64,000 bases of DNA from Waterburya sp. (GTDB lineage Bacteria > Cyanobacteriota > Cyanobacteriia > Cyanobacteriales > Xenococcaceae): the NCBI GenBank assembly GCA_965217895.1, contig CBDCJV010000002.1:4224001-4288000 (forward strand). The letters are read 5' to 3'. The notes below the pieces were generated by a model. That model was not told the origin of the DNA. It saw only the letters and a list, made by a program, of their open reading frames with translations, and did no database searches. The position numbers and the translations under genes were made by a program. This document shows positions 13,340 through 50,222 of the stretch, piece after piece. Every line of letters begins with the position of its first letter. Within the stretch, counting starts at the first letter, position 1.

Positions 13340-13413
13340 CGGGGCGTAGCGCAGCTTGGTAGCGTACCACTTTGGGGTAGTGGGGGTCGTGGGTTCAAAT
13401 CCCGCCGCTCCGA
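13340..13413 (+). tRNA. trnP: tRNA-Pro (GGG)
   Basis: Cloverleaf; anticodon arm CCACT-TTGGGGT-AGTGG; GGTTCAAATCC T-arm; CCA not encoded. Confidence 0.97.
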
Positions 13414-13417
13414 TACA
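13368..13417 (+). repeat. attL (3' part of tRNA-Pro)
   Basis: 48/50 identical to 46406-46455. Confidence 0.93.
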
Positions 13418-13421
13418 TTTG

Positions 13422-13445
13422 AAACCTTCTCCTAGAGAGGGTTTT
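13422..13445 (+). terminator. Hairpin after tRNA
   Basis: AAACCTTCTC-cta-GAGAGGGTTTT; similar sequence follows attR. Confidence 0.6.
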
Positions 13446-13532: not shown

Positions 13533-13620
13533 TGGTAGAAGATTGGTAGACGGATTTTAGCCCTTGAACCCCCCATGAATCCAAGCAAACAAGATATTAG
13601 TGGTAGACAAAGTGGTAGAC
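13533..13620 (+). promoter_or_regulatory. Putative integrase arm-type binding sites
   Basis: TGGTAGA(A/C) at 13533, 13544, 13601, 13613; matching pair at 46329 and 46340. Confidence 0.65.
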
Positions 13621-28942: not shown

Positions 28943-28944
28943 TA

Positions 28945-31900
28945 ATGGCGATTACGGCTAATACACTTGCTGATATTTTTAGCGTTAAGCGTCGCTATTC
29001 TCGTTCCGTCAACTTAGAGAGAGATTTAGAACAATCCGATGCGCTGCAAGGATACATCCTGACTGAAAGATCGGTTGATGCTCTGCGGAGAGTTCTATCT
29101 GGATTAGGTGAAGGTACTAGTAATGCCTGGACGTTGACTAGCGTTTATGGAACGGGAAAATCTGCTTTTGCTCATTATTTAGCTTCTCTATGTGCGCCCT
29201 CTAAGAGCAAAATGCGATCGTTTTCTTTAGAAATTACTCAAGCTGCTTTAGGAGCTGAAAGTGAAGAGTATCAAGCTTTAGAATCATCTATTCCCCAACA
29301 GGGGTATCTTCGTGCTGTAGCTGTAGCTCAAAGAGAGCCAATTAGTAACACAGTTGTTCGGGCATTACTTAGGGGTGCAGAAACATTTTGGACTCCTGCA
29401 AAACGAAAAAAGATTGAGGCGGTATCTAAATTACAAGAATTAGCAGCAGAAATAGAGCTAGGTAATAAAATTGATGGCAACGAAATTCCTGCTTTGCTTA
29501 AGGAACTAGCTAAAGCTTCTAAGACGGGACTTTTCCTAATTGTCGATGAGTTGGGCAAAAACTTAGAATATGCCTCTAATAATCAAGGTGCTGAAGACTT
29601 ATATCTCCTACAGCAACTAGCGGAGCTTCCTAGAGACGGTAAGCATCCTATTTATATTCTGGGAATTTTACACCAAGCTTTTGCTGATTACAGTCAAAGA
29701 TTAGCCTCCATTCAGCGTAATGAATGGTCAAAAATTCAGGGGCGATTTGAGGATATTCCCTTTACCGAATCAGCAGGTCAAATGATGCGATTAATCGGTA
29801 AGGCGATCAATCAGACCAGTACAGATACTTACGCTTGTGCGTTACATAATCAGGCTCAAGAATGGTTTGCGCGTTTAGATAATGTTTTTGGGAGAGAGGA
29901 ACTGAATGCAGAGATTTTAGAGCAAGTATATCCCTTACATCCTGTGTCTGCTCTAGTTTTACCGATTTTATGCCAACGGTATGCTCAAAACGATCGCTCT
30001 TTGTTTACTTTCCTGACAAGTTCTGAACCCTATTCCTTCAATAATTATTTGTCAGAGATGACAGTTGAAGGTGATAGGTTGCCATCCCTCAAGCTAGATA
30101 GGCTATATGACTACTTTATTGAAGCAGCAGGAATGGGACTAGCCTCTCGCCCAAATTTACAAAGATGGGTAGAGATTCAGGATTTGATAGCTGATGCTAG
30201 GCATCGCGATCCAGATATACTTAGAGTTCTCAAAACTATTGGAATTCTTAATTTAGTAACTATCACTGGCTTAACAAGGGCTACTCGTAAACTAGTTACA
30301 TTTGCCATGTGCGATCGCCCTGATGATATAAAAGAAATTGAATCTTGGGATCGGGTCATTGGCGAATTGCTAGAAAAAGGTTTAATCACCCACCGTCGTC
30401 AATTAGACGAACTGCGTATTTGGCAGGGTTCTGACTTTAATGTAGACAATGAGCTAATACGCTATCGAGAAGAAAACCGAGAACCATTGTTTGAGCTGTT
30501 GTCTTCGATTCGCCCTCTAAAGCCTTTGGTCGCTCAACGGCACAGCTATCAAACAGGAACGTTGCGTTATTTCGAGCGTTGTTATTTAGACAGTTCGGGC
30601 GATTTAAATGAGTTGGCTTCTTCTAGCAATGAAAGCGATGGACTTATTGGTTATTGGGTAGACGACATAAAACCCGAAACAGTGCCAAATTTAACTGCTG
30701 ATGGTAAACCACTAATAATATCGTGTGCTGCCGAACTGGAATCTTTGCGGATAAGAGCTAGGGAATATGCAGCATTGAAAAAGATTCAGAAAACATCTCC
30801 CGAATTACAAACTGATGGTGTTGCTAGAAGAGAAGTTCGCTACAGAATTACACAAGCAGAGCAATTGCTGTACGAATCTCTTCAAGAATCTTTTGAACTG
30901 GCAAATGATAAAAATGATTGCTGGATTGAAGGAAAACAGGAAACCATTCGTAATATCACCGAATTTAATTCCCACCTTTCGGCAGTATGCGATCGCATTT
31001 ACAATCTCAGTCCCAAAATTTGGAACGAACTAATCAACCGTCGTCAGCTTACTTCTCAAGGAGCTAAAGCCAGGCGACAATTAATTGAAGCTCTGATCGA
31101 AAATTCTGGCGTAGAAAAACTTGGATTAGAAGGATATGGTCCCGAAGTTACCATGTATCATTCTCTTCTTGGAGAAACCAGAATTCACAGGGAAGAAGAT
31201 GGGTATTGGGATATTTATCCGCCAGAGAAAGGATCGGGAGTATGGACGTTATGGCAAGCTGTTGATAAATTTTGTTTGGCTGCCAAAGAAAAACCGCAAA
31301 CTCTAGACCGTCTCTATCAAAAATTGGCAAATCCGCCTTATGGAATCAAGCAGGGAATGATTCCTATATTAATAGCTGCGGTATTGATCTATCACCTTGA
31401 TGATGTAGGTGTTTATCAAGACGGTACATTTATTCCTCTTCTGGGAATAGAGCATTTTGAGTTGTTGCTCAAAGATCCCTCTCGTTTTGCGGTCAAATCC
31501 TTTGAATTTATGGGGTTGCGATCGCAAGTTTTTAAAGAACTTGAGGCTATTTTACGCAGCTCTAAAGCTAAAAAAACTGGTAAATTGCGGAATGCGACTC
31601 TTTTAACCGTTGTGACTCCCCTCTATCAGTTTGTAAATAAGCTACCAAACTACACAAAACAAACTAAACGCTTGAGTCCAGAAGCAGTAGCTGTTTTACA
31701 AGACTTACAGAAAACAGTAGAACCAGACAAACTTCTGTTTACAGAACTTCCTCAAGCCTGTGGTTTACCTGCTATTGGCACGGAAGAAGCTGATGATGGC
31801 ACTACAGCTAAGGAATTGCGTGTAAACTTAGTCAAGGTTATTAAAGAGCTTAATCAAGCATACGATAACTTATTGGCTGAGTGTCAAAGTCTACTTCTCG

Positions 31901-32481
31901 ATGCTTTTGGAGTTCGCAGGGGAGAGTCAAAATTAAGAGAAGATTTACGAGTCAGATCTAACTATTTAATTGACAAGTGTATCGAACCAACTCTGAAACG
32001 TTTTACTAAAGCTGCCGTAGATGAAAAGGCAGACGATGAAGAATGGTTGAGAGCATTAGTGATGATCGTAGCCGACAAGCCTGCTGCTTCTTGGACAGAC
32101 CAGGATGTAACTCGGTTTGAGATCGAATTAGCGGATTTAGTCAGAAAGTTTCAAAATCTGGAAGCTCTACAGAAAGAAACAACTGCTAAAGGTGAAGGGT
32201 TTGAAGCTCGTCGCATTACCGTGACTCATGCAGATGGGCAGGAAACTCATCGTGTAGTTTGGGTTGATAACGAGCAGGAAAAACAGGTAGAGCAGTTAGT
32301 AATAGAGGTTATGAAGGTTTTGCCACAAGACCCTCAATTGCAGCAAGCTGTACTAACTAAACTTACTGAAAGAATTTTAAATGCTTCTTCAGAGTCTAAT
32401 AAAGAAATAACCAAGATTTCGAGGAAGCGCAAGGTTAAAGAAACTCAAACATCAAATAAATCTGAAAAAGCAGCAAAATAA
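28945..32481 (+). CDS. sspC: Large P-loop ATPase, SspC-like
   Basis: RSVNLERD, VYGTGKS, IVDELGK.LE, EW.KIQGRF, YPLHP, AQNDRSLFTFL, PPYGIK.G. Confidence 0.8.
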   Translation: MAITANTLADIFSVKRRYSRSVNLERDLEQSDALQGYILTERSVDALRRVLSGLGEGTSNAWTLTSVYGTGKSAFAHYLASLCAPSKSKMRSFSLEITQAALGAESEEYQALESSIPQQGYLRAVAVAQREPISNTVVRALLRGAETFWTPAKRKKIEAVSKLQELAAEIELGNKIDGNEIPALLKELAKASKTGLFLIVDELGKNLEYASNNQGAEDLYLLQQLAELPRDGKHPIYILGILHQAFADYSQRLASIQRNEWSKIQGRFEDIPFTESAGQMMRLIGKAINQTSTDTYACALHNQAQEWFARLDNVFGREELNAEILEQVYPLHPVSALVLPILCQRYAQNDRSLFTFLTSSEPYSFNNYLSEMTVEGDRLPSLKLDRLYDYFIEAAGMGLASRPNLQRWVEIQDLIADARHRDPDILRVLKTIGILNLVTITGLTRATRKLVTFAMCDRPDDIKEIESWDRVIGELLEKGLITHRRQLDELRIWQGSDFNVDNELIRYREENREPLFELLSSIRPLKPLVAQRHSYQTGTLRYFERCYLDSSGDLNELASSSNESDGLIGYWVDDIKPETVPNLTADGKPLIISCAAELESLRIRAREYAALKKIQKTSPELQTDGVARREVRYRITQAEQLLYESLQESFELANDKNDCWIEGKQETIRNITEFNSHLSAVCDRIYNLSPKIWNELINRRQLTSQGAKARRQLIEALIENSGVEKLGLEGYGPEVTMYHSLLGETRIHREEDGYWDIYPPEKGSGVWTLWQAVDKFCLAAKEKPQTLDRLYQKLANPPYGIKQGMIPILIAAVLIYHLDDVGVYQDGTFIPLLGIEHFELLLKDPSRFAVKSFEFMGLRSQVFKELEAILRSSKAKKTGKLRNATLLTVVTPLYQFVNKLPNYTKQTKRLSPEAVAVLQDLQKTVEPDKLLFTELPQACGLPAIGTEEADDGTTAKELRVNLVKVIKELNQAYDNLLAECQSLLLDAFGVRRGESKLREDLRVRSNYLIDKCIEPTLKRFTKAAVDEKADDEEWLRALVMIVADKPAASWTDQDVTRFEIELADLVRKFQNLEALQKETTAKGEGFEARRITVTHADGQETHRVVWVDNEQEKQVEQLVIEVMKVLPQDPQLQQAVLTKLTERILNASSESNKEITKISRKRKVKETQTSNKSEKAAK

Positions 32482-32556
32482 TTTAAAAATTATTTTAGCA
32501 ACTAAGGCTTTCTTGTATAGGAAAACAATAGAGACATGTGTTAAGGAATAATACTC

Positions 32557-33288
32557 GTGAAAATAGACGGTTTTATTGAGATTTTAGATAGATATTTTTT
32601 GGATTTTATTGGTACAGTTATTCCAGGTACTGCGTTTATAACAGAAATTTATATACTTTTAAAACAGCCACTACTGTCTAATAAAATAATAGTATCAAAC
32701 AGTGGAGCAACTTGAATTTTTTGCATCATCTTAGGATATATAGTGGGACACGCATTGAGTAGTATTGGAAATTACGTAATTATTGAACTTTTAGAACACT
32801 TAAAAGCTCACCAATATACTAAATGGTTATTGCCAAGGTTTATCACCCCAAAAAAGCAGCTTTTTGAAAAAATACAAAAGCGAATAGATTACAAGCAATT
32901 AGTTAGTCAAGCAATAAAGTATTTTTCTATTGAAGTAGAAGCAGAAAGTGATTTTAGTTCTTGGCGAAATATAGCAATGTCTTTAGCAGAAGATAATTCC
33001 TTAGCATATCGTTTTATGTTCCTTTCTTTAATGAATTTAGGTATAGCGACTAGTATTCTGCTAACAGATTTATTGTGGATTCTACTACATCTAATAAATG
33101 GTCGTTTTGGAATTAACCTTAATTTGCTTAATTTCAATTTGGTATCATTTATTTTAATTTTTTTAGTTAGCTTGCCATTTTTGGAAAGATACTATCAATT
33201 TTATAGATATTCTATGGAAGTTCCTTTCTCTAAAGCTCTAGTAAAGCTTAAAGAGCTAGAACAAACCTCCAATGAAAGAGATACCTGA
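32557..33288 (+). pseudogene. Multi-pass membrane protein with in-frame TGA
   Basis: GTG 32557 after AAGGA; FLDFIGTVIPG..T*IFCIILGYIVGH; TGA at 32713-32715 in frame with ORF 32743-33288. Confidence 0.65.
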
Positions 33289-35362
33289 CGATATTATGTC
33301 TGATGTGATCGCCTGTTTTCCGCAAATAATTAAATTGTGCCGTCAGAGTAAAGTCGGCAAGATTTTACCTGATGCCTTTTACATTCATATCAGCGCGATC
33401 GCAGAACTGGACGATCTTGTCATTGCTTATGAGGCTAAAGCTAGAGAGTTACTAGGCAAGAGAGACAATGACTACAATATTCTGAAATTTGGGTTGTCAA
33501 AGCCCCAAATATCTTATTTGTCCTATCCTAAATTCGAGTCAGATCCCCATCCTCGTCTGAAATCCAGCCTAATTGTCAATCTTCAAACTAAGGATATTGT
33601 TTATCGAGATTATACGGATTCTAAAAATCCCCCCATCCTGCACAGAAAAGAAACCTTCATCTCCAAACAGCACCATCTATACGATAAATTTAGTCACCTA
33701 ACTAAGTGCGAACAAGAAATTGGGTTACTCAAGCCTGCTAAACAGATTGGATTTCTTAAACAATGGCAGCAGTTTCTCGCTCTCAACCACATTCAATTTG
33801 AGGATCACTATTTAGCTTGCGCGATCGATAAGGCTGGCAATAACAACAAACTTCTGGAAATAGATCGTCATAAAGCAGCGATTGTTCGTAACGATCTGTC
33901 CCGTCCTGTAAAACTGGCTTTTGAGGCTAATTTGCTTTCAGATAAAGTCAGTTTTTTTGATTATGGGTGCGGTCATGGAGGAGATGTTAGCAGACTTACC
34001 GATCGAGGAATTGAGAGTGCAGGATGGGACCCCCATTACTTTTCAGAACATCCATTGAATTCGGCTGATGTTGTTAACGTCGGATACGTAATCAATGTCA
34101 TTGAAAATCTTGCCGAACGCAGACAAGCCTTAATAAATGCTTGGAATTTGACTAAAAAGGTTTTAATCGTCTCGGCTCAAGTATTGGTAAGTGATGCCAG
34201 TAGAAACTGGGTTGCTTATGGTGACGGAGTAGTGACAAGTCGCAATACCTTTCAAAAATATTTTGAACAGGAAGAACTAAAGCTTTATATAGATCAAGTT
34301 TTAGAAGTAGATTCAATTCCTTCTGCTTTGGGAGTATATTTTGTTTTTCGCGATCCGATTGAGGCTGAAAAGTTTCGTTCTTCTCGTTTTCGCTCTCGTG
34401 CTAGAACTCCTAGAGTTCAGCTAAGAGTTAATTACTTTGAGGAATATAAACATTTACTTGCTCCCTTGATGGAGTTTATGACCGAACGAGGTCGTTTACC
34501 CGTTAAAGGAGAATTGGATAGTGAATCAGAGATTAAAGCCAAATTCGGTAGCCTACGTAAAGCATTTAACTTAATACTGAAGGCGACTAGTGAAGATGAA
34601 TGGTCGGCGATCGCCGAAAAAAGAAGCCAGGAATTGTTAATTTATTTGGCATTGAGTAATTTTCATAAACGCCCCAAATGCAGACAGCTATCCTCAGACG
34701 TACAAGAAGATATAAAAGCATTATTTGGCAGCTACAAACAAGTCTGTACAGAAGCTGATGCCATGCTACTAAGTTTGGGCAACTTGGAAAATATCGCACG
34801 GGCAGCAAATGAAAGTTCGATTGGGAAAAAACTAACTAACTCATTACTCATTCATATCAGTGCTTTGGAACAGCTAGACCCGTTGCTGAGACTTTATGAG
34901 GGATGCGCTAGTAGAACTATTGGACGTTTAGAAGATGTCAACGTTATCAAATTCTATACTAGTAAGCCTCAAATTTCCTATCTTCATTACCCAAATTTCG
35001 ACGACGATCCCCATCCATTTTTGAAAACCAGTATGCAAATTAGGTTACGTGACTTGCGAGTATACTATCGCGATTATGAATTACAAGGCGACACGCCTAT
35101 TTTGCATCAGAAAGATCTATTAGTTACAGAGGATTACCCTGGCTACGAAAAATTTGCTAAATTAACAGCTCAAGAAAATAATTGGGATTTATTGAGTAAC
35201 TGGCAGCAAATCAGGTCTTATGGGGGTTGGCAAGCTTGCTTAGAGGAACATTGTGCCGAGCTTAAAGGTCATCGAGTCTACTTCCAAAATGATGCCGACC
35301 CCTATAAATTAAAGATTCTAAAATCTGGAATTCAGAAAAGGCGCAAACAAAACCAAGGATGA
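33272..35362 (+). CDS. DNA phosphorothioation-associated putative methyltransferase
   Basis: RHKAAI.R..LSRP, FDYGCGHGGD SAM motif, GWDP, GYVINVIE, T.RNTFQK; duplicated YP.F..DPHP..ILH.K domain. Confidence 0.85.
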   Translation: MKEIPDDIMSDVIACFPQIIKLCRQSKVGKILPDAFYIHISAIAELDDLVIAYEAKARELLGKRDNDYNILKFGLSKPQISYLSYPKFESDPHPRLKSSLIVNLQTKDIVYRDYTDSKNPPILHRKETFISKQHHLYDKFSHLTKCEQEIGLLKPAKQIGFLKQWQQFLALNHIQFEDHYLACAIDKAGNNNKLLEIDRHKAAIVRNDLSRPVKLAFEANLLSDKVSFFDYGCGHGGDVSRLTDRGIESAGWDPHYFSEHPLNSADVVNVGYVINVIENLAERRQALINAWNLTKKVLIVSAQVLVSDASRNWVAYGDGVVTSRNTFQKYFEQEELKLYIDQVLEVDSIPSALGVYFVFRDPIEAEKFRSSRFRSRARTPRVQLRVNYFEEYKHLLAPLMEFMTERGRLPVKGELDSESEIKAKFGSLRKAFNLILKATSEDEWSAIAEKRSQELLIYLALSNFHKRPKCRQLSSDVQEDIKALFGSYKQVCTEADAMLLSLGNLENIARAANESSIGKKLTNSLLIHISALEQLDPLLRLYEGCASRTIGRLEDVNVIKFYTSKPQISYLHYPNFDDDPHPFLKTSMQIRLRDLRVYYRDYELQGDTPILHQKDLLVTEDYPGYEKFAKLTAQENNWDLLSNWQQIRSYGGWQACLEEHCAELKGHRVYFQNDADPYKLKILKSGIQKRRKQNQG

Positions 35363-35523
35363 TAATATTTTTTTCTCTAGAGTAAATTTTACTTTTACTT
35401 TAGGGAACTATTTAAGTAACCCTTATAGTTGGTATTCAAAAAGCCGTTAATGCAATTGGGACAAGAGTAGTATAGTAAACATATGCTGGTATTTTGAAAT
35501 CAGACCGTTATTTATAATTGAGA

Positions 35524-36324
35524 ATGAGTGAAAAAAAAGTTAGGCATGTATTAGGACTCTCAGGAGGTAAGGACTCAACTGCCTTAGCTATTTTGCTGCA
35601 TCAAGAAATTCCTGACATGGAATACTTTTTTTGTGACACTCATAAGGAATTACCCGAAACTTACGAATATTTAGATCGTATTAAGGCTCGCTTGGGCATT
35701 AAAATCAACTACTTAAGTGAAAAAAGAGGTTTCGATCATTGGTTAGCTCTTCACGATGGTCTATTGCCCTCGCCTCAAATGCGGTGGTGTACCATCAAAA
35801 TGAAAATTAAGCCTTTTGAAGAGTTTGTGGGCAATGATGAAGCAATCAGCTATATTGGCATTCGTGCTGATGAAAATCGTGATGGCTATCTATCTACTAA
35901 ACCAAATCTAAAGCCTGTATTTCCTTTTAAGGAAAGAGGATTAGTCAAAGCAGATATTATCCGCTTACTAGAAGACAGCGGTATTGGTCTACCCGATTAC
36001 TATCGCTGGCGCAGTCGCTCGGGCTGTTTTTTTTGTTTCTTTCAGCGTAAATATGAGTGGGTAATGCTAGCCCAAGAACATCCAGATTTGTTCGCTAAAG
36101 CAATTGAATATGAGCAGAATCATGCCGATGGTCGAACCTATACCTGGACACAGGGAGAAACGTTATCGGAACTTTTAGAACGTAAGGATGAAATTATTGC
36201 TAACCATGACAAGGCAATAAACAAAACTAAAAAAGCTGCTCCTAATCGTCCTTTAGCCGAAGCTTTAGAGTCAGTTTTGGATGACGAAGATGATGGTTTG
36301 CCCTGTTTAGCTTGTCATTTATAA
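35524..36324 (+). CDS. sspD: PAPS-reductase family protein, SspD-like
   Basis: SGGKDS, RWCT..K..P, GIRADE, RSRSGCFFCF, terminal CLACHL. Confidence 0.85.
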   Translation: MSEKKVRHVLGLSGGKDSTALAILLHQEIPDMEYFFCDTHKELPETYEYLDRIKARLGIKINYLSEKRGFDHWLALHDGLLPSPQMRWCTIKMKIKPFEEFVGNDEAISYIGIRADENRDGYLSTKPNLKPVFPFKERGLVKADIIRLLEDSGIGLPDYYRWRSRSGCFFCFFQRKYEWVMLAQEHPDLFAKAIEYEQNHADGRTYTWTQGETLSELLERKDEIIANHDKAINKTKKAAPNRPLAEALESVLDDEDDGLPCLACHL

Positions 36325-36327
36325 CTT

Positions 36328-38187
36328 ATGAATACTTACCCTTCTTCTATTAAATCTAAATGGATTGATTTTCTCAGACATTACGGGCCAATTCCTCGCA
36401 ATGACAATATGTATGATGAGGTTATTCAACGAACCTTAAAAAGAAAAAAAGTTGACCCTATTATTTTTGATACAGAATATCTTAATGAGTTAATTGAAAA
36501 TTTTCAAGGAAGTTCGCCTAAATCAGTAATTTTAACGGGAACGGCTGGAGATGGTAAAACATTTTGTTGTCGTCAGATTTGGGAAGCATTAAACGGTCAA
36601 TCCGAAGATTGGGAAAAAGACCAAAAAGTTTATCAATTAGAAATTGGAAATAAACAACTATTCGTTGTTAAAGACCTAAGCGAATTAGAAGATCATCGTA
36701 AAACGAACTTATTAACTAAAATGGCTGACTCTATTGTTCAGCCTTCTTCTTCAGATATTTATCTAATTGCAGCTAATGATGGACAACTAATAGAAGCATG
36801 GAAAAAAGCTCAAGATACGCCTAGCGTAAAAGAAGTTCGTCAAGTTATTGAAGAGTTATTAGTTACTGATACCAAAGAAAAATCTAATTACAATTTACAT
36901 TTATATAATCTCAGTCGTTTAAGTGCTGCCAAAATTGTCCTCAAAATCCTAGATGCAGTATTAAATCATTCTGGTTGGCAGGAATGCCATCAGTGTTCTT
37001 ATTACAACCCTCCTAGCCAGAACGAAAAATGTCCTATTTGGGAAAACAAAATAAGACTTGAAGGTACAGAGAATAACAAAACGCTCCAAAGCAGATTAGT
37101 CGATCTTCTTGAATTAGCTGAACTTAATGAAATGCACCTTCCTATTCGGCAATTACTTTTGCTTATTGCCAATATTTTACTTGGTCATCCTGATGGTAAA
37201 GATAAACTTTTAAACTGTAGAAAAATTCCTGCTATTGTTGGACAAGGAACCAGTCATAATGCCAGCCTATATCGCAATATTTTTGGTGCAAATTTATCTC
37301 TTAGAAAAAGGACTTCTATCGAAGTTTTTAAAGTATTGAATTATTTTGGTATAGGAACTGAAACCAGCAATCAAATTGATAATATCCTTATTTTTGGCTC
37401 TGACGATCCTAACTTTAAAGATGACTATAACTCTTTGATTGAAACCGATACTTTTTATGGTGCATATCGTAATTTTTATTTAAAACAAAAAAGCTATCTT
37501 GAAGGAAATTACTCAGAAGATAGAAATGATTTTTTAGTAATGCTTCAATCTCAAAGGCAAAGACTATTTTTTGTTATTTCACTCGAACAAGAATTAAGCC
37601 TTGATTTCTGGAATTTAACAGTATTTCAATATGCAGGAGAATATTTAAATGATGTCTATCGAGTCTTAAAAAATAACCAACAAATTTCTCAAATTATAAT
37701 TGGACGTTTAATCAGAGGACTTAATCGTATTTTTACAGGAATGTTGGTTAAAAATCAAGATAAATTAATTATTGCAACGTCAGGAAGTTACTCTCAAGCA
37801 AGAATCAGTAAAGTTTATGAAGATGAAATATCCGTTAGAAAAAAAAGAGGTGAAGAAGTTACTATAGAACTAGAAACAAACCAAAATAAACTAAATTTAG
37901 TGGTTTATCTTTCCTCGAATCAAGAATTGTTTCCCATTAAATTAGGTCTTAATTTAACTCGCTATGAATACCTAAGTAGAGTAGCAGAAGGTACATTACC
38001 TAGCAGTTTTTCTAAAGAGTGTTATGAAGACATATTAGCTTTTAAAACTCAAGTTTTACAACAAATTGAACAAAGAAAACGTCTTGAAGGGGAAGAGGAA
38101 ATAGACTCGGAAAATTATATGTTACTTCAATTACTTGAAGTCAAAGATGAAATTGCTCATTCTGTTCAAGTAGAAATTAAGATATGA
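36328..38187 (+). CDS. sspF: PT-linked restriction protein F-like ATPase (SspF/DptF-like)
   Basis: VILTGTAGDGKT, VKD.SE, IAANDG.L; position in cluster. Confidence 0.7.
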   Translation: MNTYPSSIKSKWIDFLRHYGPIPRNDNMYDEVIQRTLKRKKVDPIIFDTEYLNELIENFQGSSPKSVILTGTAGDGKTFCCRQIWEALNGQSEDWEKDQKVYQLEIGNKQLFVVKDLSELEDHRKTNLLTKMADSIVQPSSSDIYLIAANDGQLIEAWKKAQDTPSVKEVRQVIEELLVTDTKEKSNYNLHLYNLSRLSAAKIVLKILDAVLNHSGWQECHQCSYYNPPSQNEKCPIWENKIRLEGTENNKTLQSRLVDLLELAELNEMHLPIRQLLLLIANILLGHPDGKDKLLNCRKIPAIVGQGTSHNASLYRNIFGANLSLRKRTSIEVFKVLNYFGIGTETSNQIDNILIFGSDDPNFKDDYNSLIETDTFYGAYRNFYLKQKSYLEGNYSEDRNDFLVMLQSQRQRLFFVISLEQELSLDFWNLTVFQYAGEYLNDVYRVLKNNQQISQIIIGRLIRGLNRIFTGMLVKNQDKLIIATSGSYSQARISKVYEDEISVRKKRGEEVTIELETNQNKLNLVVYLSSNQELFPIKLGLNLTRYEYLSRVAEGTLPSSFSKECYEDILAFKTQVLQQIEQRKRLEGEEEIDSENYMLLQLLEVKDEIAHSVQVEIKI

Positions 38188-39770
38188 ATAAAAATATTTT
38201 ACCTCGTCCTCAACAAATATCAGATCAATTTGAAATGTGGGTTGATGAAGCCATTTGGGGACATCGCCTTTATGACGAACAAACACCTTGGTTAACTCTG
38301 TTAGAATTTTTGGGTATTCTTCAATCTCAAATTGAAATTGGTAAAGGATTTATAGAAGAAGAAAATCAGCTAAATTATTTAAACTATTATTATTATTCTC
38401 GTCTTTCTTTGCGTAATATATTATTTAATAATCCTTATTTGGAAGCTATTAGTGATGAATTTTTTAACGATGATGACTGTTGGCAAAAATGGGAATTATA
38501 CATGATTAAAAGTTGTGGTGGTATTAATCCTCCCGTAGACTTTAGTTATTTAAAAGAGCGGTTTTCTTCCTTTAAAGATTTTGTAAAAATTGTCCATTTT
38601 CTTCAAACTAATGCTATTGAAGGCGATAGTAATAAACGATGGACTTCTAAATTTATTTTTCCTTATGGTCCAGATTGTTTGTATTCTGATTTAAGAGTTA
38701 AAGGGACAAATTTTAGTCAAGATCGTCGTTTTTTTGCAAGAACAGGAGAATTACTCTATTTAATGCTTTGTCGCAGTGGGAAAAGAGAAGAATTAAAAAC
38801 TGCTCTTATTAACTTAAGAATTGTTGCAGAACCAGATAATAAACATCAAACTTCAAAATGGAATCATCTCGTTGTAATGTTACAACCAGAATCTGAACTT
38901 AAAAAGGATAATACAAGAAAAAGTGGTAATCCTCCCTATCTTCCATATAAAGAACTTCCTGAATATACTGCTTTAGCTGAAGATTGGCTAAATATTTTAC
39001 ATTACAACTTACCAGATTATGATGCTATTCCCTATCTAGTTACTCTAACGGGACTTCATCTAGTTATTTACTTATTAAAAAGGGCAAAAGCTGTTTTAGA
39101 AATTGCTGAATCTCCTCAATTTGTTTTGGAAATTGTTGCTCCAAAAAAAACCGTGGTGCGTGATTTAGCTTCTAGCTCTTTTTTAGAGAATAATAACTTA
39201 TCTTACCAAGCAATAGAAAATTATATTCTAAGTATTACGACAACATTAGACTGGGAACAGTGTAAAACTTCTTCTAATGCTGTTCACGATACTTTAGAGC
39301 TTATCCAAAAAGGATTTGCTTGGAATTTAAAAAAAGCCGGTAAGATACCAGAAAATTCCTCGCCTGATGAAATTCTTAAAATATTCCGTGAAAAAGCAAT
39401 TTCTCGCCATAAGCAGCATATTGGCAACTGTCATAGTAGTTGGTCAAAAGAAATTGGACTAGCTTCTAGTAGGGGAAGTCGCAGAATTCGTTATGCTCCT
39501 ACTGATTCACTATTAAAAACCTTAGTCTTATGTACTGTACCGCATCGCTTAGAATTTCAAAATTTCCTAGCTAAATTATCAGAAACATACGGTTTTATTA
39601 TTGGAGACCGCCAAGCTACCAAATTTATTGAAACAGGGGAAGCAGATCGAGAGGCGTTTGCTAGTAATGCAGAACGTTTAGAACAGCGTCTTGCCAGTTT
39701 AGGCTTATTGAAACGACTTTCAGATGCTTGTGCCTATGTACAAAATCCTTTTGCGGTGGAGTCAGTATAA
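38184..39770 (+). CDS. sspG: PT-linked restriction protein G-like (SspG/DptG-like)
   Basis: C-terminal L..LGLL.RLSDACAYV.NP; coupled between F-like and H-like genes. Confidence 0.7.
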   Translation: MNKNILPRPQQISDQFEMWVDEAIWGHRLYDEQTPWLTLLEFLGILQSQIEIGKGFIEEENQLNYLNYYYYSRLSLRNILFNNPYLEAISDEFFNDDDCWQKWELYMIKSCGGINPPVDFSYLKERFSSFKDFVKIVHFLQTNAIEGDSNKRWTSKFIFPYGPDCLYSDLRVKGTNFSQDRRFFARTGELLYLMLCRSGKREELKTALINLRIVAEPDNKHQTSKWNHLVVMLQPESELKKDNTRKSGNPPYLPYKELPEYTALAEDWLNILHYNLPDYDAIPYLVTLTGLHLVIYLLKRAKAVLEIAESPQFVLEIVAPKKTVVRDLASSSFLENNNLSYQAIENYILSITTTLDWEQCKTSSNAVHDTLELIQKGFAWNLKKAGKIPENSSPDEILKIFREKAISRHKQHIGNCHSSWSKEIGLASSRGSRRIRYAPTDSLLKTLVLCTVPHRLEFQNFLAKLSETYGFIIGDRQATKFIETGEADREAFASNAERLEQRLASLGLLKRLSDACAYVQNPFAVESV

Positions 39771-42700
39771 TGAAGTCTTTAAAATTAATTGGCAAAGTAA
39801 CAACACAATATCTTAAAAGCTTTAGTTCAACAGAGGAAGAAGAAACCGACGATGGTGTGGCTCGTTTTCTGTTAGATTGCCTAACCCCAGAGCAAGTTGC
39901 TGAAATCTGTCGTCAAATTCTTAAAGATCCTCATTTATCATCTCAAATTAAGATTCAAGTTCCCCGCACCCTTATTCATAATTTTGATGATTTAACTACA
40001 GAAATCATGACCGATGAGCGAACGGTTCATTTACGTCATGCCTCTTGTGACAAACCTATTTTATTGCTTGCTAATACTAATGACGACCAAGGACAATCTT
40101 TACAAGACATTACCTGTATTGGCGCAAGTGAACTAAAAGCTGAAAATGATATCTGGGTTGAAGTTGCTAGTCGAGATATACCCTTATCAGAGGAACAGAT
40201 TAAGTATTGGCAAAAAGCTTTAAAAGGATTACAGGCTGCTATAAATTTGAGCTTAGATAATCTCGCTCAGTATATTGTTGATACTCATTCCAGAATTGAA
40301 AATGAAAGTGAACCAATTATTAACGCATTGGGATGGGCTTTGCCATCTCTAAAAATTCCCCGTGATTCTAGTTATTTTGAAGCTATCCCTGAAAACAAAC
40401 GAGGTCATTATCAGCGTTGGCAAAGTCTTTTTCAACAAGCAATTTCCAAGCGAGGGTGTTACTTAATAAAGCAAATGCCTAATCTCAAACCTATAGAAGA
40501 AAAAGAGCTAGAAAATGCTTTTACCAAAGCCAAAGAGCAGATTCCAAAAATAGCCCATTCAACTATTGATGAGTTTATTCATAGTCCTTCTGGTTGGCAT
40601 CAACAAGCATCTAATCTGGCTCAATTTGAATGGGAAAGAGATAATATTGATTCTATCTTTATTGGATTAAAACCTCCCAAAACAGATTTAGCTTCTTTAA
40701 CTATTCAACTTTTTGAAGATGAATATCCTGATACTTTAACAGAGGCTGAAGAACAATATTTAAAAGCCCTTAAAAAGCGTTCTGCTACTAAAAATCCCAA
40801 TGAAGATGACGAAAAATTTTATGAAAATTATCGACAATCTTTAGAACAAAACCCAAAATTAAAAGCTAAATGGGATAAATTTGTTTATGGACAACCAGTT
40901 GAATGTTATGATTTTCTTATTGGATTAATACAAGCTTTTGAAAGACTATATGCTCAATCTGAATCTAAAGAAGGACAACAAACATTAATTATCAAAACCC
41001 AAAAAGGTGTTCGTAAAAGTAAATGGCTTGAAGAACTTAATGTAGAAGTTGGTCTTTACTTTTGTACGAGATATAGAGGGATTGAAAAACTTACCTCGCC
41101 AGAAATTGAATGGGAAACCCATTGGTTATTCAAGTACGACGAGCTATTAGAAGAAAACCAAAAACGACAGCAAAAATATAAGGAAAGTAAATCTGTTAGT
41201 AAAGCAGCCACAGAAATCAAATTCTATGTCGAGCTTCACTCTTCATCTTCAGATAATCCTAAAATTCAATTAATTTGGAAATGTAACCCGAATGCTATCG
41301 GACTAGAACTTCGTCAAGACTTAGAAAGACTTACTGATTCGGCTAAATCAGCCTTTATTCAATCTCAAATAGCACGGGAATTAGTTAGTAAAAAAGGTCG
41401 TCTTCAAGGAATATCTTTAAATGATGTTGGAACGTTAATGGCTGCTTTTGGACAAGATAGAGGTTCTTTAATTCCTAAATATGAGCCGAAACTTGACCTA
41501 GCTAAAACCTTTCCTAAAAAGATTAAAAACGCAGTTGAAGAAAAACGCTTGTCCTCAGAAGCTGCCGAACAAATTAATAATCTTTGGCATAAATTTACCG
41601 CAATATATCAAAAAGCCCTAAAAAGTTGGCTCAGCGAAGAAGGAATTTATAGTAAAAAGTTCTTAGAACAAGGTCAAGCCTACCAAGAATTATTAGAAAC
41701 ACTTTTAAACAATGCTTGTGGAGATCGAAACCGAATTGAACTTTATCAACCTTTACTCAATTTAGGATGTATTCAAGTAGAAAGAGGAAATTCTGCTGCT
41801 ATTATTGCTCCTTGGCATCCTTTAAGACTAGTATCCATAGCTGTTAAGGCTCGTCAAATATCAGGATTGCTCAAATATATTCTCCGTACCGAACAAGTTG
41901 AATTTGGGGATTCTCGTCTTTTCTTTTCCGATTTGACCACAGAATTAGCTCATCCTTACTATCCCGAAGTTGCTGTAGGATATCAAGGTTCTCAACCGAT
42001 TCTTTTATCTTTATCTGATTCAGTTAATGATTATAGTTTATTAGAACAACCAACTTGGGCAGTAAAAAATCAAATTACTAATGAAGACCCCACTGAAGCA
42101 GCTTCCAAATTAATTAAATTAGTACAACGATATTTAGAATTACTTCCCCATGAAAAAACTAATTTAAGTTTAGTTCTTTATCAATGTGATTCTATTAAAC
42201 TACCCCAAGCAGTTGTTAATCAATTAGCTAAATTACAAGAAAATCAAGAAGAATCACGTTGTCATATTATTTTGCGACATCGAGAATCAGAAAAACTTAG
42301 TCGTTTATACGAACAAATGATTGAAAGTTCTGATGCAGATCCAGATACTTTTATTGCCAGTGAAGCTTCACAAGATTTTATGGCAAAACTTCGGATCAGT
42401 GTTATTTCTGACTCAAGTTCAATTAATAATAGCAGCGAAGGAAAATCTGCCGATCTTGTTTTCCTACAAGATGTTATCTCTAGAAATGCTCAGGTAGTTT
42501 GGCAAGCTTCACCGATTGAAAAAACAACTCCCCATTTATTAGATCATGTACCACCAAGATGGGCAAGAAAACGCCCTGTTGCTAAAGATGAATTAAAATC
42601 AACGGTTTATTTGGTTTGTCCTAGTCAACCACAAGAATCTAAAAATTATTTAGATGCAATTTATAGTGTGATTGAAGGACAAGAGCTATCTCCTGAAAAA

Positions 42701-45082
42701 TATTTCCTTCCTGCACGACAAATTTCTTTTCAAAATGATACTATCAAAACTGTATTTGAAGAAGTCCATCGTCTGGGAGAATGGGTTGTTAATTATGATG
42801 ATTTATTAGAAAGACGACAACTTGTCAATCAAGGAGTACAAGTTATTCGTTATCAACAACATCGTACTGATGAGCGCAATCTATTAGTTTCTTCTCAAGT
42901 TCCTTTGAATTTATTACAAGTCCTAATTAAACGGCGATTAGAATCATTAAATTTAAATCTTGACGAGCAAGAATTAAAAGATTTATCTCAACGTTTTCTT
43001 GATGAAGCCAATGAATTATCGGGAGATATTGTTCTTAGAGCAGCTAAATGCGGTCATTTTGTAAGCGAACTAATTGGTGTAGTTTTGAGTAAATCTTTAA
43101 TTAGATCAGAACTAAATCATAGTGATGCTTTAGGATGGTATTTTTTAGATGATTATGCTACATGGTTAGGGCAAAAAGAAGGACAAATTGCTGATATTTT
43201 AGCAATCAGCCCTCAAATAATAGATGAGAAGCCTGTTTTAAAAATTATTATTTCAGAAGCTAAATATGTTATTGCTTCTGGTATAGCTGATGCTAGAAAA
43301 AAATCACAAAAACAGCTACGAGATACTGTACAGCGTATTGCTAATGCTCTTTTTATTACTCCAGGCCGTTTAGATCGTGACTTATGGTTATCTCGTTTAG
43401 GTGATTTAATGCTAGAAGGCATTGAATTTAGTTCTCAATCTTCTATTTCTCTCGAACAATGGCGTGAAGAAATCCGTTATGGTCAAATTGAGATTGATTT
43501 ATCGGGTTACTCTCATGTTTTTGTTTCTGGACCTAATGATACCTCTGTTACCAGCGAACAAATTGTTATTCCTAAAGTAGAACGATGTTTTCAAGAAATT
43601 TTTAGTCGTGGAGATGTAAGACAATTAATTCTGGCTTATTACTCTGGAAAATCATTATTAACTGTTCGGGAAAAATTAGGAGATGAAAAACCTTGGGCTA
43701 TTTCAAAGCCTCAATTTCCAGCCGAGCGAGTTATTTGGACTGACACTATTACAGAGGAAATAAAAGCAACTGACACTGAACAAGAATTAACTTCAAAACA
43801 ACCAAAACAAACCAATAATTCTTCTAGTCCTGATGAATCTAATCGAGCTTTGCCAACTACAACAATATCAGAGCAACAATCTGTTATTCAACCAACAAGC
43901 AATGAATGGACAAGTCTAACTTTAAGTACTTGGCTCAATCATAATTCTACCTCCTCTACCGATAAAACAGAAGAAGAGCAATGGCTCAATGATGTTGTTA
44001 ATTCTCTTCGTCAAGCCTTATTAAGCTACGATCTTCAAGCCAAAGTTTTAGAAAAAAGATTAACTCCTAATGCAGCTTTAATTCAATTTCAAGGCTCAGA
44101 TCGTCTCAATATTTCTGATATCGAACGTCGTCGTTCTTCATTATTAACAACTCATGGTTTAAATGTAATTAATATCTCTGGACAACCAGGTAAAATTGTT
44201 ATTTCTGTTGCTCGTCCTCAACGTCAAGTTATTTCTCTGCAAGAAGTATGGCAGAAACGTAAACTCAATCGTTCAAATACAGATATTAATCTTAGTTTTG
44301 TGATTGGAATTAGAGAACTTGATGGAGAAATACTATACCTAAACCTAGGAAGTGAATTTGAAAAGTTGCAAAGTCATGCACCTCATACTTTAATTGCTGG
44401 AACAACTGGAAGTGGTAAATCTGTTCTGTTAACAAATCTGTTAATTGATGCTTGCGCCACTAACAGTCCAGACAAGCTGAAAATATATCTTATTGATGCT
44501 AAACAAGGGATAGATTATTCTGCCTTAAAAAAACTTCCCCATCTTCAAAAAGGAATTATTGTCGAGCGAGAGCATGCAATAAATATTCTGGAAGAAGTTG
44601 TGGAGGAAATGGAGCAAAGATATTTTAAATTTAGCCAAGCAAATGCTAAGAATCTATTTGTCTATAATCAAAAAGTTTCCCCAGAAAAACAACTACCTGT
44701 TTTATTAGTTGTTCATGATGAATTTGCTGACTGGATGTTAATTGATGAATATAAAGATGCTGTTTCTTCTGCTGTGCAAAGATTGGGAGTTAAAGCAAGA
44801 GCAGCTGGAATTCATTTGATTTTTGCAGCTCAACGTCCTGATAATCAAGTGTTTCCCATGCAACTAAGAGATAATCTAGGTAATCGTTTAATTTTGAAAG
44901 TTGAAAGTGTAGGAACGTCAGAATTTTCTTTGGGACAAAAAGGAGCAGAAAATCTTTTAGGAAAAGGCCACTTGGTTGCAAAATTATATGGAGAATCAGA
45001 CCTGATTTATGCTCAAGTTCCTTTTCTTTCTGATGATGATTTTGATTTAGTAACTAGAGCAATTCAGCAAGATTATGATTAG
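39770..45082 (+). CDS. sspH: PT-linked restriction protein H-like with C-terminal FtsK ATPase
   Basis: ATG 39770 overlaps upstream stop; PHTLIAGTTGSGKS, HDEFADW, ARAAGIHLI.A.QRP, GAE.LLGKGH. Confidence 0.75.
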   Translation: MKSLKLIGKVTTQYLKSFSSTEEEETDDGVARFLLDCLTPEQVAEICRQILKDPHLSSQIKIQVPRTLIHNFDDLTTEIMTDERTVHLRHASCDKPILLLANTNDDQGQSLQDITCIGASELKAENDIWVEVASRDIPLSEEQIKYWQKALKGLQAAINLSLDNLAQYIVDTHSRIENESEPIINALGWALPSLKIPRDSSYFEAIPENKRGHYQRWQSLFQQAISKRGCYLIKQMPNLKPIEEKELENAFTKAKEQIPKIAHSTIDEFIHSPSGWHQQASNLAQFEWERDNIDSIFIGLKPPKTDLASLTIQLFEDEYPDTLTEAEEQYLKALKKRSATKNPNEDDEKFYENYRQSLEQNPKLKAKWDKFVYGQPVECYDFLIGLIQAFERLYAQSESKEGQQTLIIKTQKGVRKSKWLEELNVEVGLYFCTRYRGIEKLTSPEIEWETHWLFKYDELLEENQKRQQKYKESKSVSKAATEIKFYVELHSSSSDNPKIQLIWKCNPNAIGLELRQDLERLTDSAKSAFIQSQIARELVSKKGRLQGISLNDVGTLMAAFGQDRGSLIPKYEPKLDLAKTFPKKIKNAVEEKRLSSEAAEQINNLWHKFTAIYQKALKSWLSEEGIYSKKFLEQGQAYQELLETLLNNACGDRNRIELYQPLLNLGCIQVERGNSAAIIAPWHPLRLVSIAVKARQISGLLKYILRTEQVEFGDSRLFFSDLTTELAHPYYPEVAVGYQGSQPILLSLSDSVNDYSLLEQPTWAVKNQITNEDPTEAASKLIKLVQRYLELLPHEKTNLSLVLYQCDSIKLPQAVVNQLAKLQENQEESRCHIILRHRESEKLSRLYEQMIESSDADPDTFIASEASQDFMAKLRISVISDSSSINNSSEGKSADLVFLQDVISRNAQVVWQASPIEKTTPHLLDHVPPRWARKRPVAKDELKSTVYLVCPSQPQESKNYLDAIYSVIEGQELSPEKYFLPARQISFQNDTIKTVFEEVHRLGEWVVNYDDLLERRQLVNQGVQVIRYQQHRTDERNLLVSSQVPLNLLQVLIKRRLESLNLNLDEQELKDLSQRFLDEANELSGDIVLRAAKCGHFVSELIGVVLSKSLIRSELNHSDALGWYFLDDYATWLGQKEGQIADILAISPQIIDEKPVLKIIISEAKYVIASGIADARKKSQKQLRDTVQRIANALFITPGRLDRDLWLSRLGDLMLEGIEFSSQSSISLEQWREEIRYGQIEIDLSGYSHVFVSGPNDTSVTSEQIVIPKVERCFQEIFSRGDVRQLILAYYSGKSLLTVREKLGDEKPWAISKPQFPAERVIWTDTITEEIKATDTEQELTSKQPKQTNNSSSPDESNRALPTTTISEQQSVIQPTSNEWTSLTLSTWLNHNSTSSTDKTEEEQWLNDVVNSLRQALLSYDLQAKVLEKRLTPNAALIQFQGSDRLNISDIERRRSSLLTTHGLNVINISGQPGKIVISVARPQRQVISLQEVWQKRKLNRSNTDINLSFVIGIRELDGEILYLNLGSEFEKLQSHAPHTLIAGTTGSGKSVLLTNLLIDACATNSPDKLKIYLIDAKQGIDYSALKKLPHLQKGIIVEREHAINILEEVVEEMEQRYFKFSQANAKNLFVYNQKVSPEKQLPVLLVVHDEFADWMLIDEYKDAVSSAVQRLGVKARAAGIHLIFAAQRPDNQVFPMQLRDNLGNRLILKVESVGTSEFSLGQKGAENLLGKGHLVAKLYGESDLIYAQVPFLSDDDFDLVTRAIQQDYD

Positions 45083-46271
45083 AAATATGTTTGAAAAATC
45101 TAGTTTCTTATCTAAATCAATTTACCTTGATTATCATTCTACTACTCCTGTAGACCCTAGAGTAGCAGACCGAATGCTATATTATATGACTACTGCATTT
45201 GGTAATGCTAGCAGTACAGACCATATCTACGGCGATGAAGCAGCAAAAGCTGTATCTGAGGCACGTCGTCAAGTTGCTGAATTAGTCGGTGCATCAGAAA
45301 GAGAAGTGATTTTCACCTCTGGGGCAACAGAAAGTATTAACTTAGCTATTCAAGGAACGGTATTCAAGCACATTGATAACAAGAGTAAACCTCGCATTGC
45401 TTTCTCCCTACTCGAACACAAAGCAGTACTAGATACCTGTCAGGCGATCGCCAAAAAAGGATTAGCAGATATTGTTAGTCTTCGAGTTGATTCCCAAGGC
45501 AGACTAGACCTAAAGTATCTAGAACAAGTCTGTAAGCAGGGATTATCTCTGCTGTGTGTTATGGCTGCCAATAATGAAATCGGTAATATTTATCCAGTTC
45601 AAGAAATTGGTAACATAGCTCAAAAATATGAGATTTCTTTTCTTTGTGATGCTTCTCAGGCAGTAGGAAAAATACCAATTGATTTTGAACAATGGGGAAT
45701 TACTTATCTAGCCATCTCTGGTCACAAATTTTATGCACCCAAAGGAGTAGGCGCATTAGTGGTTAGAAAAGGACATCAACTAGAACCAATTATTTTTGGT
45801 GGCGGTCATCAAAAAGGAATGCGTTCTGGAACGCTTAATGTCCCTGGCATTGTTGGTTTAGGGGAAGCCTGTAAGTTAAGGCAATTAGAGATGATAGAAG
45901 ATGAAAAAGCGATCGCCCTACTGCGAGACAAATTGCAGAATTTGCTTCAAGAAAAAATTCCCAACTTAATAGTAAACGGCGATCTAGACTCTCGACTAGC
46001 AGGCAACCTGCATATTTCTATCCCAGGCATACCGAATAGTCCCATTATTGCTAGAATCCGCCATTGCCTCGCTATTTCGACTGGTTCCGCCTGTTCTTCT
46101 GGGGTTGCAGCACCCTCTCATGTTTTGCGTGCTATGAACTTATCTGAAGAATTAATCGAAGGTTCACTAAGAATAGGATTAGGCAAGTTCACCACTAACC
46201 GAGAGATAGAAAAATCAGTCAAAATTCTTTCTGATGCAGTCGAACAAGTTTTTCAAGCAATGCACATTTAA
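45075..46271 (+). CDS. sspA: Cysteine desulfurase (SspA/DndA/IscS family)
   Basis: YLDY.STTP, FTSGATE, ANNEIG, DA.QA.GK, SGHK.Y.PKG.G, STGSACSS. Confidence 0.9.
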   Translation: MIRNMFEKSSFLSKSIYLDYHSTTPVDPRVADRMLYYMTTAFGNASSTDHIYGDEAAKAVSEARRQVAELVGASEREVIFTSGATESINLAIQGTVFKHIDNKSKPRIAFSLLEHKAVLDTCQAIAKKGLADIVSLRVDSQGRLDLKYLEQVCKQGLSLLCVMAANNEIGNIYPVQEIGNIAQKYEISFLCDASQAVGKIPIDFEQWGITYLAISGHKFYAPKGVGALVVRKGHQLEPIIFGGGHQKGMRSGTLNVPGIVGLGEACKLRQLEMIEDEKAIALLRDKLQNLLQEKIPNLIVNGDLDSRLAGNLHISIPGIPNSPIIARIRHCLAISTGSACSSGVAAPSHVLRAMNLSEELIEGSLRIGLGKFTTNREIEKSVKILSDAVEQVFQAMHI

Positions 46272-46405: not shown

Positions 46406-46455
46406 CACTTTGGGGTAGTGGGGGTCATGGGTTCAAATCCCGTCGCTCCGATACA
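46406..46455 (+). repeat. attR (displaced tRNA-Pro 3' part)
   Basis: CACTTTGGGGTAGTGGGGGTCATGGGTTCAAATCCCGTCGCTCCGATACA. Confidence 0.93.
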
Positions 46456-46495
46456 ATTCAAACCTTCTCTGAGAGAGGGCTTAACCGTTGTTAAT

Positions 46496-46590
46496 TGTGC
46501 ATTAACAAATTATTTGTCATCAGTAACAGATTACTGTCGTTTTAACATATTGAGTGTCATCGATAACAATTTGTTTGGTGACAAACAAAT
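46496..46590 (+). mobile_element. Relic left end of a type V-K CAST / Tn7-like transposon
   Basis: Starts TGT; TGTC..TAACA motifs at 46515, 46535, 46555 (TnsB-site-like); 62 bp from a GTT PAM in attR. Confidence 0.75.
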
Positions 46591-46628
46591 TTAAACCCTC
46601 ACAACTTAAATATTGAATATTATAGTTG

Positions 46629-46657
46629 CGGAGCGACGAGATTTGCTTTCATTCATT
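46629..46657 (-). CRISPR. Delocalized homing mini-crRNA (partial repeat + 17-nt anti-tRNA spacer)
   Basis: Minus strand ..TGAAAG-CAAATCTCGTCGCTCCG; 16/17 match to 46434-46450. Confidence 0.75.
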
Positions 46658-46870
46658 TTGAGGTGCGGATTGAATAAAAATGATTAAGCGTTTTTTTTAT
46701 TATACAAAGCGATCGCCATATCTTGAGCTTTTAGGGATAAAATCTTGCTTATTCGGTTTTATATTTAATTCTGCCTACCTACTTATTTAGCAATCCTAAA
46801 TCGGAAAACCAATAATTTAGAATTGCTGTACCTATTTTTTCCTTCACTCTAAACTTGTCTTTTTGTCACT

Positions 46871-50084: not shown

Positions 50085-50222
50085 ATTATTAGCTCTCTCA
50101 AAGTCCTATTCGGTAATTAGCTCTATTTACTTTCTACTTTCTTGGTGCGCGTACATGCGGCTAAAGCCTTTGTCTTGCGCCTGACGGCGACGCGGGGTCG
50201 CACCGCTTTTTACTTTAAAAAC

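Follow-up and report, generated by a model that had tools for sequence, protein, structure and literature searches.

We found that positions 46496-46737 of the window (the whole 64,000-nt stretch of Waterburya sp. DNA that was analysed) probably represent the left tip of a Cas12k transposon (type V-K CAST) that has lost its body. The transposon would have belonged to a sub-lineage in which a second tracrRNA is fused to GAAAG and a 17-nt spacer, likely forming a natural single-guide RNA of about 250 nt (probability about 0.72). The guide remaining in the window is most likely the 3' end of such a tracrRNA-fused guide whose tracrRNA part was deleted, and not the free-standing mini-crRNA proposed in an earlier note on this DNA. 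The DNA evidence makes a natural single guide likely; its expression as one RNA, loading onto Cas12k and use in insertion are predicted.

The features of the window are listed in the table. On the minus strand, TGAAAG (46651-46646) is followed by a 17-mer (46645-46629) with one mismatch to the protospacer, at position 7. The left end begins 62 nt past the PAM with TTAAT directly before it, and its TGTC...ACA motifs start at 46515, 46535, and 46555. The earlier note had reported the 16/17 match to a GTT-preceded target as well as the TGT end with three 20-bp-spaced motifs 62 bp after the PAM, and both were confirmed. A regular expression for the triple TGTC...ACA cluster matched this left end only in the 5.3-Mb genome. 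Chance was checked on contig C2, where 3 of 2,646 TGAAAG sites had an adjoining 17-mer that matched, with at most 2 mismatches, a GTN-preceded site no more than 2 kb away. These comprised the window unit, the anchor belonging to an intact CAST at tRNA-Phe, and an unrelated match with 2 mismatches. As in V-K CASTs, a GTN PAM and a 17-nt anchor protospacer lie in tRNA sequence outside the left end, and the PAM-to-end distance of 62 nt falls in the reported range of 46-82 nt (PMC9938897, available text) and equals the mean given for V1 elements (PMC12416283, available text). The TGT-initiated end carries repeated TnsB-type sites and is homologous to the ends of intact elements, with one departure: its terminus is TGTGCA versus TGTACA in 36 of 36 other ends counted among the retrieved loci. 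A larger inverted att duplication, named in the earlier note as a possible source of the 17-mer pair, was ruled out because any extension of the inverted repeat is loose (24 nt, 83%) and stops on the PAM side.

Table. Features of the window relevant to the CAST relic and the tRNA-Pro island.
Feature	Position	Strand	Basis
Intact tRNA-Pro(ggg), attL junction of the island	13340..13413	+	ARAGORN, sole tRNA call in the window
Tyrosine integrase of the island	13575..14774	+	Pfam Phage_integrase and Arm-DNA-bind_2
TrwB-type coupling protein and TrwC relaxase (integrative mobilisable element)	21086..25536	-	
Island cargo: SspB, SspC, SspD, SspF, SspG, SspH and SspA/DndA-like cysteine desulfurase, phosphorothioate defence	27914..46271	+	PADLOC
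attR, 77 bp, 91% identical to 13368-13444 (tRNA-Pro 3' half and following hairpin)	46406..46482	+	
GTT PAM and 17-nt homing protospacer	46431-46433, 46434-46450	+	Sequence match to spacer
Type V-K CAST left end with three 20-nt-spaced putative TnsB sites, terminus TGTGCA instead of TGTACA	46496..46592	+	
Homing (anchor) spacer, 17 nt, 16/17 to the attR protospacer	46629-46645	-	Sequence match
GAAAG (46650-46646) preceded by AAAATGAAT, putative 3' linker arm of a tracrRNA-fused guide, the tracrRNA portion apparently lost at about 46660	46646..46659	-	
Remnant between cas12k and tracrRNA, putative tracrRNA promoter	46660..46683	-	Homologous to fused-class L057 and L028
Last 15 codons and stop of cas12k, KAQDMAIALYNKKNA	46684..46731	-	
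Dispersed miniature repeat element, right half	46732..46786	+	23 other matches in the genome

The CAST target lies in the attR copy belonging to a 33-kb integrase/relaxase island inserted in tRNA-Pro(ggg). The earlier placement of the target in the 3' end of tRNA-Pro thus stood as to tRNA 3' sequence; the site is an attR fragment instead of a tRNA gene, since ARAGORN called a tRNA at 13340-13413 only. The island (13414-46482) has its integrase beside the intact tRNA, its far end carries a duplicate of the tRNA 3' part, and the CAST end stands behind attR because the island occupies the stretch between the two. The spacer matches the attR copy at 16/17 positions and the intact gene at 15/17, and the site 62 nt behind the PAM of the intact gene is empty. 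The T stem of attR differs from the intact gene at two positions, giving a compensatory A-U pair that is also found in intact tRNAs of relatives. Islands that integrate into tRNA genes displace the old 3' half of the tRNA on insertion. For this reason insertion of the CAST before entry of the island is the simpler order of events, and we favour it moderately as an inferred order. The integrase island would then have entered the tRNA later, shifting the old 3' half together with the CAST 33 kb away. The allele match between spacer and attR was considered as proof of this order and rejected, because L034, a related locus, has the same spacer base despite another tRNA allele. A third, older island beneath the CAST was unsupported, because the attR of another genome (G008) also contains the hairpin. 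Gene order around tRNA-Pro was scrambled in 5 of 5 relatives searched, so that the xdh operon is no more than possible cargo. The island shares with tRNA-integrating mobilisable elements carrying SspABCD-SspFGH an integrase by the restored tRNA, a relaxase, a coupling protein, and a far-end duplicate of the tRNA 3' part. Nothing in it is unusual compared with them; it uses the same hotspot as the CAST and parts the relic from the tRNA gene. The SspABCD and SspFGH cluster looks complete, with two further, unassigned genes (32743-35362) between sspC and sspD, and a DnaB-like helicase of the island (15704-17055) is split into N- and C-terminal frames.

The same locus was then inspected in relatives, as the earlier note had proposed. 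A 341-nt stretch spanning tRNA, end, and spacer was searched against 41 genomes, and G006 was the sole match across all three. It holds a complete element at tRNA-Pro(ggg), with its end 62 nt from the PAM, a 17/17 spacer, cas12k, tnsB, tnsC, both ends, and AAAAG as target-site duplication. A scan of GTDB contigs for GAAAG plus the spacer gave 3 loci, namely the G006 contig, L034 (tRNA-Pro, CAST end, and a cas12k fragment), and L033, which was discarded as a chance match. The best alignments of the window end were to CAST ends at tRNA-Pro(ggg), reaching 79% over 132 nt in L034 and 81% over 97 nt in G006, in agreement with the earlier reading of an orphan left end from a deleted type V-K CAST. 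Decay of such elements was frequent in the family: 37 of 61 genomes had a cas12k match, many of them fragmentary, and fragments with stops were frequent. A relic of this kind is in itself ordinary.

We examined 34 distinct cas12k loci, and an anchor spacer was identifiable in 23. Fifteen anchors were free, seven were fused, and one (L034) was fused but split by an insertion sequence. All 15 free anchors had a purine-rich GG/GA repeat tail, and in the 10 with a recognised tracrRNA 3' stem the stem lay 329-868 nt from the spacer. In the seven fused loci the tracrRNA 3' stem was followed by TGAAAG and the spacer within 40 nt, so that a short hairpin is all that separates a second tracrRNA copy from GAAAG and the homing spacer. 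The insertion sequence of L034 (about 1.1 kb, L034:850-2014) lies precisely within the linker of this fused tRNA-Pro guide and is flanked by a TTATAAA duplication. A pattern consisting of the tracrRNA stem, 6-36 nt, and TGAAAG matched 14 of 401 genomes of the order, with 0 matches for the reversed pattern as control. One match (L064) was a chance match and not an anchor, leaving 13 of 401 genomes; 11 pattern matches fall in two families. A stricter pattern found 9 loci in metagenomes. All these counts are lower bounds, because three fused units (L029, L095, and L096) escaped the patterns. Among 21 distinct fused units, 18 had a GTN-preceded site in neighbouring DNA with 0-2 mismatches, and the targets comprised 9 tRNA types as judged by the neighbouring tRNA call. 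The PAM-to-end distance was 46-63 nt in the 14 measurable units, and the units were 237-265 nt long. Ten elements carried a free tracrRNA beside cas12k in addition to the fused copy, which in several elements came directly after the last array repeat. Rfam gave no family for the fused RNAs of 4 loci (tRNAs only), and a plasmid search with one fused guide gave no match. Most spacer mismatches in the fused units L027-L096, and also that at position 7 in the window, were C-to-T changes, for which rU:dG wobbles would be expected.

The linkers and the tracrRNA copies were compared. Four units, all from the second family, retain the anti-repeat:repeat duplex AATCCATY/RATGGATT in full (8 pairs), closed by a loop, which is the design of engineered single guides (PMC11906591, available text). 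In the first family this duplex has diverged into AT-rich hairpins. Compared with mononucleotide shuffles, 14 of 21 linkers had a better folding energy and 9 of 21 a better terminal stem; 7 of 21 were no better than shuffles, and 5 had no predicted hairpin, that of G006 included. The CTTTC anti-repeat and the helices were kept in the fused tracrRNA, and 10 of 55 predicted pairs had two-sided changes among 16 related sequences, a count inflated by kinship. By eye, no obvious conserved promoter was seen at the second tracrRNA copies. A quick Cas12k tree, which leaves out 4 short rows (L034, L059, L060, and L063), placed 12 of 14 fused elements in one clade (SH-aLRT 100) and the other two apart. 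The tracrRNA tree needed two origins, and one origin was allowed by 0% of 200 bootstrap trees. These trees suggested that the fused arrangement arose at least twice. We consider it rather probable that a Cas12k sub-lineage evolved natural homing single guides at least twice by duplication and fusion of the tracrRNA and retargeted them to at least nine tRNA genes, splitting one-piece homing from two-piece array-guided spread in a manner that is undescribed.

In the proposed mechanism, Cas12k with the fused guide would have recognised the GTT PAM together with the T-arm of tRNA-Pro(ggg), with TniQ, TnsC, and TnsB placing the left end 62 nt downstream. GAAAG would be bound by the internal CTTTC anti-repeat, as reported for the tracrRNA, in which a second duplex forms at the 3' end (PMC9486595, available text). 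The linker hairpin would substitute for this second repeat:anti-repeat duplex, so that homing would be independent of pairing with a separate crRNA. The first tracrRNA copy would serve the array and the fused copy homing. TniQ and S15 contact the tracrRNA part of a single guide of about 250 nt (PMC9798831, available text). The main rival to this mechanism is that the second tracrRNA and the anchor are transcribed together and then cut in the linker loop, giving an ordinary two-piece guide paired in cis. V-K crRNAs are indeed trimmed by a nuclease to a repeat tail of 12-14 nt (PMC9486595, available text), and the loops of the linkers, rich in A and T, range from 4 to about 13 nt. However, several linker stems consist of 4-6 weak pairs, which would hold poorly once cut, and the linkers have diverged in sequence from their elements' own array repeats, which would be expected if the link is covalent. 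We therefore regard cleavage in the linker as unlikely, although it deserves to be taken seriously.

The guide in the window probably belongs to the fused lineage, as indicated by its spacer, its tail, and the cas12k stub. The stub matched fused-class loci only (4 distinct). Four other elements have the spacer of the window (G006, L034, L085, and contig 21/17 of sequencing run X5), and all four are fused; in each the tracrRNA 3' stem, deleted in the window, is present within 40 nt of GAAAG and the anchor spacer. L085 is not independent support because the fused pattern led to it. The X5 contig shows 2 differences from window positions 46629-46661, and beyond this stretch it runs on into the tracrRNA 3' stem. 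Its alignment on L081 covered about 170 nt of tracrRNA; this evidence is a single 243-nt contig at depth 2.2. Because the elements sharing the spacer are fused and the X5 contig runs on into the tracrRNA, AAAATGAAT in the window is best read as the 3' arm of a linker. The earlier note had taken the unit for a conventional free mini-crRNA, which would pair in trans with the single tracrRNA of an ordinary V-K CAST. TGAAAG plus 17 nt near a left end is the published anchor architecture as far as the available texts describe it, and 15 of the 23 sampled anchors are of the free kind. Against this, the tail in the window (AAAATGAATGAAAG) lacks the purine-rich GG/GA motif common to the free anchors, the spacer-sharing elements are fused, and the independent X5 contig carries the tail of the window into tracrRNA. 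Nor does the tail resemble the free truncated repeat of about 12-13 nt that pairs with anti-repeat 2: its pairing with anti-repeat 2 of the only full tracrRNA in its own genome, the relic's own tracrRNA being deleted, amounted to -1.5 kcal/mol versus -19.2 kcal/mol for the anchor repeat of the tRNA-Phe CAST. The free mini-crRNA is thus largely refuted and very improbable, and the 3' end of a tracrRNA-fused guide is preferred.

The relic extends from 46496 to about 46737. The earlier note had reported no CAST genes in the window; the cas12k stub and the partial putative tracrRNA promoter correct this, and the rest of the body is absent as noted. Together the stub and the promoter remnant are 85% identical to L057 and 81% to L028, and cas12k, of which the last 15 codons alone remain, lies upstream of the guide region on the same strand as in V-K CASTs. 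The stub meets the miniature repeat over a common TAGGGA. We infer from these joints that two deletions shaped the relic. One would have removed both tracrRNAs and the array between promoter and linker, and the other would have removed the element from cas12k through the right end by joining to the miniature repeat. Dispersed miniature repeats with TAAGTAG-type ends occur at 46737-46786 and at about 50130-50215. Three other fused-class elements (L085, L068, and L079) are decayed in parallel to the window, with linker and spacer kept and part of the tracrRNA or cas12k lost. Run X1 had zero cover at about 46662-46748, a gap that proves nothing; three pieces elsewhere had 0 differences, and the run may be from the source sample. 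The relic does not belong to the V2 subgroup, for which the available text of PMC12416283 gives a V2 tracrRNA, an Arc_2 regulator, and an insertion distance of 54 nt: its distance is 62 nt, and the tracrRNAs of its relatives end in a V1-type stem.

A genome search of the kind proposed in the earlier note found the full gene set of a mobile V-K CAST in the tRNA-Phe CAST only, no second cas12k, tnsB, or tnsC of the lineage of the relic, and no right end with the TTAAT duplication. Two candidate partner right ends (C2:127 and C2:3483363) resembled the right end in G006 with a different flank, and a loose TTAAT match at C2:2578164 was without end structure; all were rejected. The least probable reading, for which we see very little room, is that the relic is still active, the promoter remnant driving GAAAG and the spacer for the tRNA-Phe CAST or the end being mobilised in trans. 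In its favour, cas12k, tnsB, and tnsC are present intact in the genome together with a tniQ-like gene, a CAAAAT hexamer sits immediately upstream of the tail, and V CASTs accept heterologous repeats (PMC11300857, available text). Against it, no right end was found, the terminus deviates from that of all other ends counted, the second anti-repeat pairing is absent, a promoter scan (3 sites versus 2.4 expected) gave no minus-strand site, and the position behind the PAM of the intact tRNA is empty. The relic is predicted to be inert, because it lacks a right end and its own tracrRNA, has a TGTGCA terminus, and pairs hardly at all with anti-repeat 2 of the tRNA-Phe CAST.

Other CAST elements were present in the source genome. 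The intact-looking V-K CAST at tRNA-Phe (C2:4477412-4508265; L001, L003, and L005) lies 200 kb away and contains a free anchor, a 2-repeat array, cas12k, tnsB, tnsC, and the tniQ-like gene. Its end is 54 nt from the PAM, its flanks are without a 5-bp duplication, and an integrase-like reading frame follows its right end. Inside it, just downstream of tniQ on the opposite strand, C2:4504685-4504829 resembles the 5' two-thirds of the fused-class tracrRNA copies, with no 3' stem and no spacer. A second relic (C2:2548391-2549280, L002) consists of a cas12k C-terminal stub cut by an insertion sequence, decayed repeats, a tRNA-Phe anchor spacer, and a left end; it adjoins a tRNA-Phe 3' fragment 1.9 Mb from the tRNA-Phe gene. 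A solo right-end-like CAST end occurs at C2:127-244 and C2:3483363 beside a 30-bp tRNA-Leu(taa) 3' fragment, in surroundings of 14-15 kb that are present twice in C2 at 99% identity, reflecting a duplication or an assembly artefact. Three CAST relics of the genome, that of the window included, stand behind tRNA att fragments.

Anchor spacers and decayed V-K elements have already been published (10.1101/2021.02.06.429022; PMC9938897; both as available). What is new here are the tracrRNA-fused homing guides, which are well supported at the DNA level. In the available texts, Hsieh and Peters reported no conserved motif beyond the crRNA unit (10.1101/2021.02.06.429022), and PMC9938897 and PMC12416283 describe a single tracrRNA beside cas12k with no mention of a second, two, or duplicated tracrRNA. 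A natural tracrRNA-anchor fusion was likewise not found in the available text of PMC11906591, PMC11406308, PMC9486595, PMC11300857, PMC9798831, PMC11656645, and 10.64898/2026.06.01.729453. A search of full-text literature gave no description of one; subscription journals and patents lay outside its scope, and prior notice is possible. The separation of homing and array guides and the origin of delocalised crRNAs were named as open in a 2024 review (PMC11656645, available text), and joining the homing spacer to a tracrRNA copy of its own is a new, testable answer. With such a guide, homing would neither depend on crRNA processing nor have to compete for one tracrRNA. The fused guide would also parallel, in nature, the engineered Cas12k single guide and would offer some 25 natural linker designs for genome-integration tools. 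The fused guides raise the question of how spacers are exchanged without an array.

Compared with published V-K anchor CASTs, the window has in common the GTN PAM, the 17-nt spacer read towards the left end, and the tRNA target (10.1101/2021.02.06.429022; PMC9938897; available texts), as well as the order tRNA - LE - guide - tracrRNA - cas12k and the frequent occurrence of decayed copies. Published anchors, as far as those texts go, have a free repeat tail of about 12-13 nt and one tracrRNA by cas12k, whereas the parent lineage of the window would have a whole second tracrRNA directly upstream and usually just TGAAAG of the repeat. The engineered Cas12k single guides (ShCAST and MG64-1; PMC9798831, PMC11906591, available texts) share with the fused units the succession of tracrRNA 3' end, loop, trimmed repeat of about 8-10 pairs, and spacer, and a length of about 250 nt. 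Unlike them, the fused units are natural, vary in linker length and sequence, and are known here as DNA. Natural single guides of Cas9, i.e. tracr-L (10.1101/2020.05.21.102756) and phage vsgRNAs (10.64898/2026.06.01.729453), similarly place scaffold and guide in one RNA; the available vsgRNA text does not mention Cas12k, V-K, or CAST. The tracr-L and vsgRNA guides repress transcription or block Cas9, whereas the fused units belong to Cas12k and would direct transposon homing.
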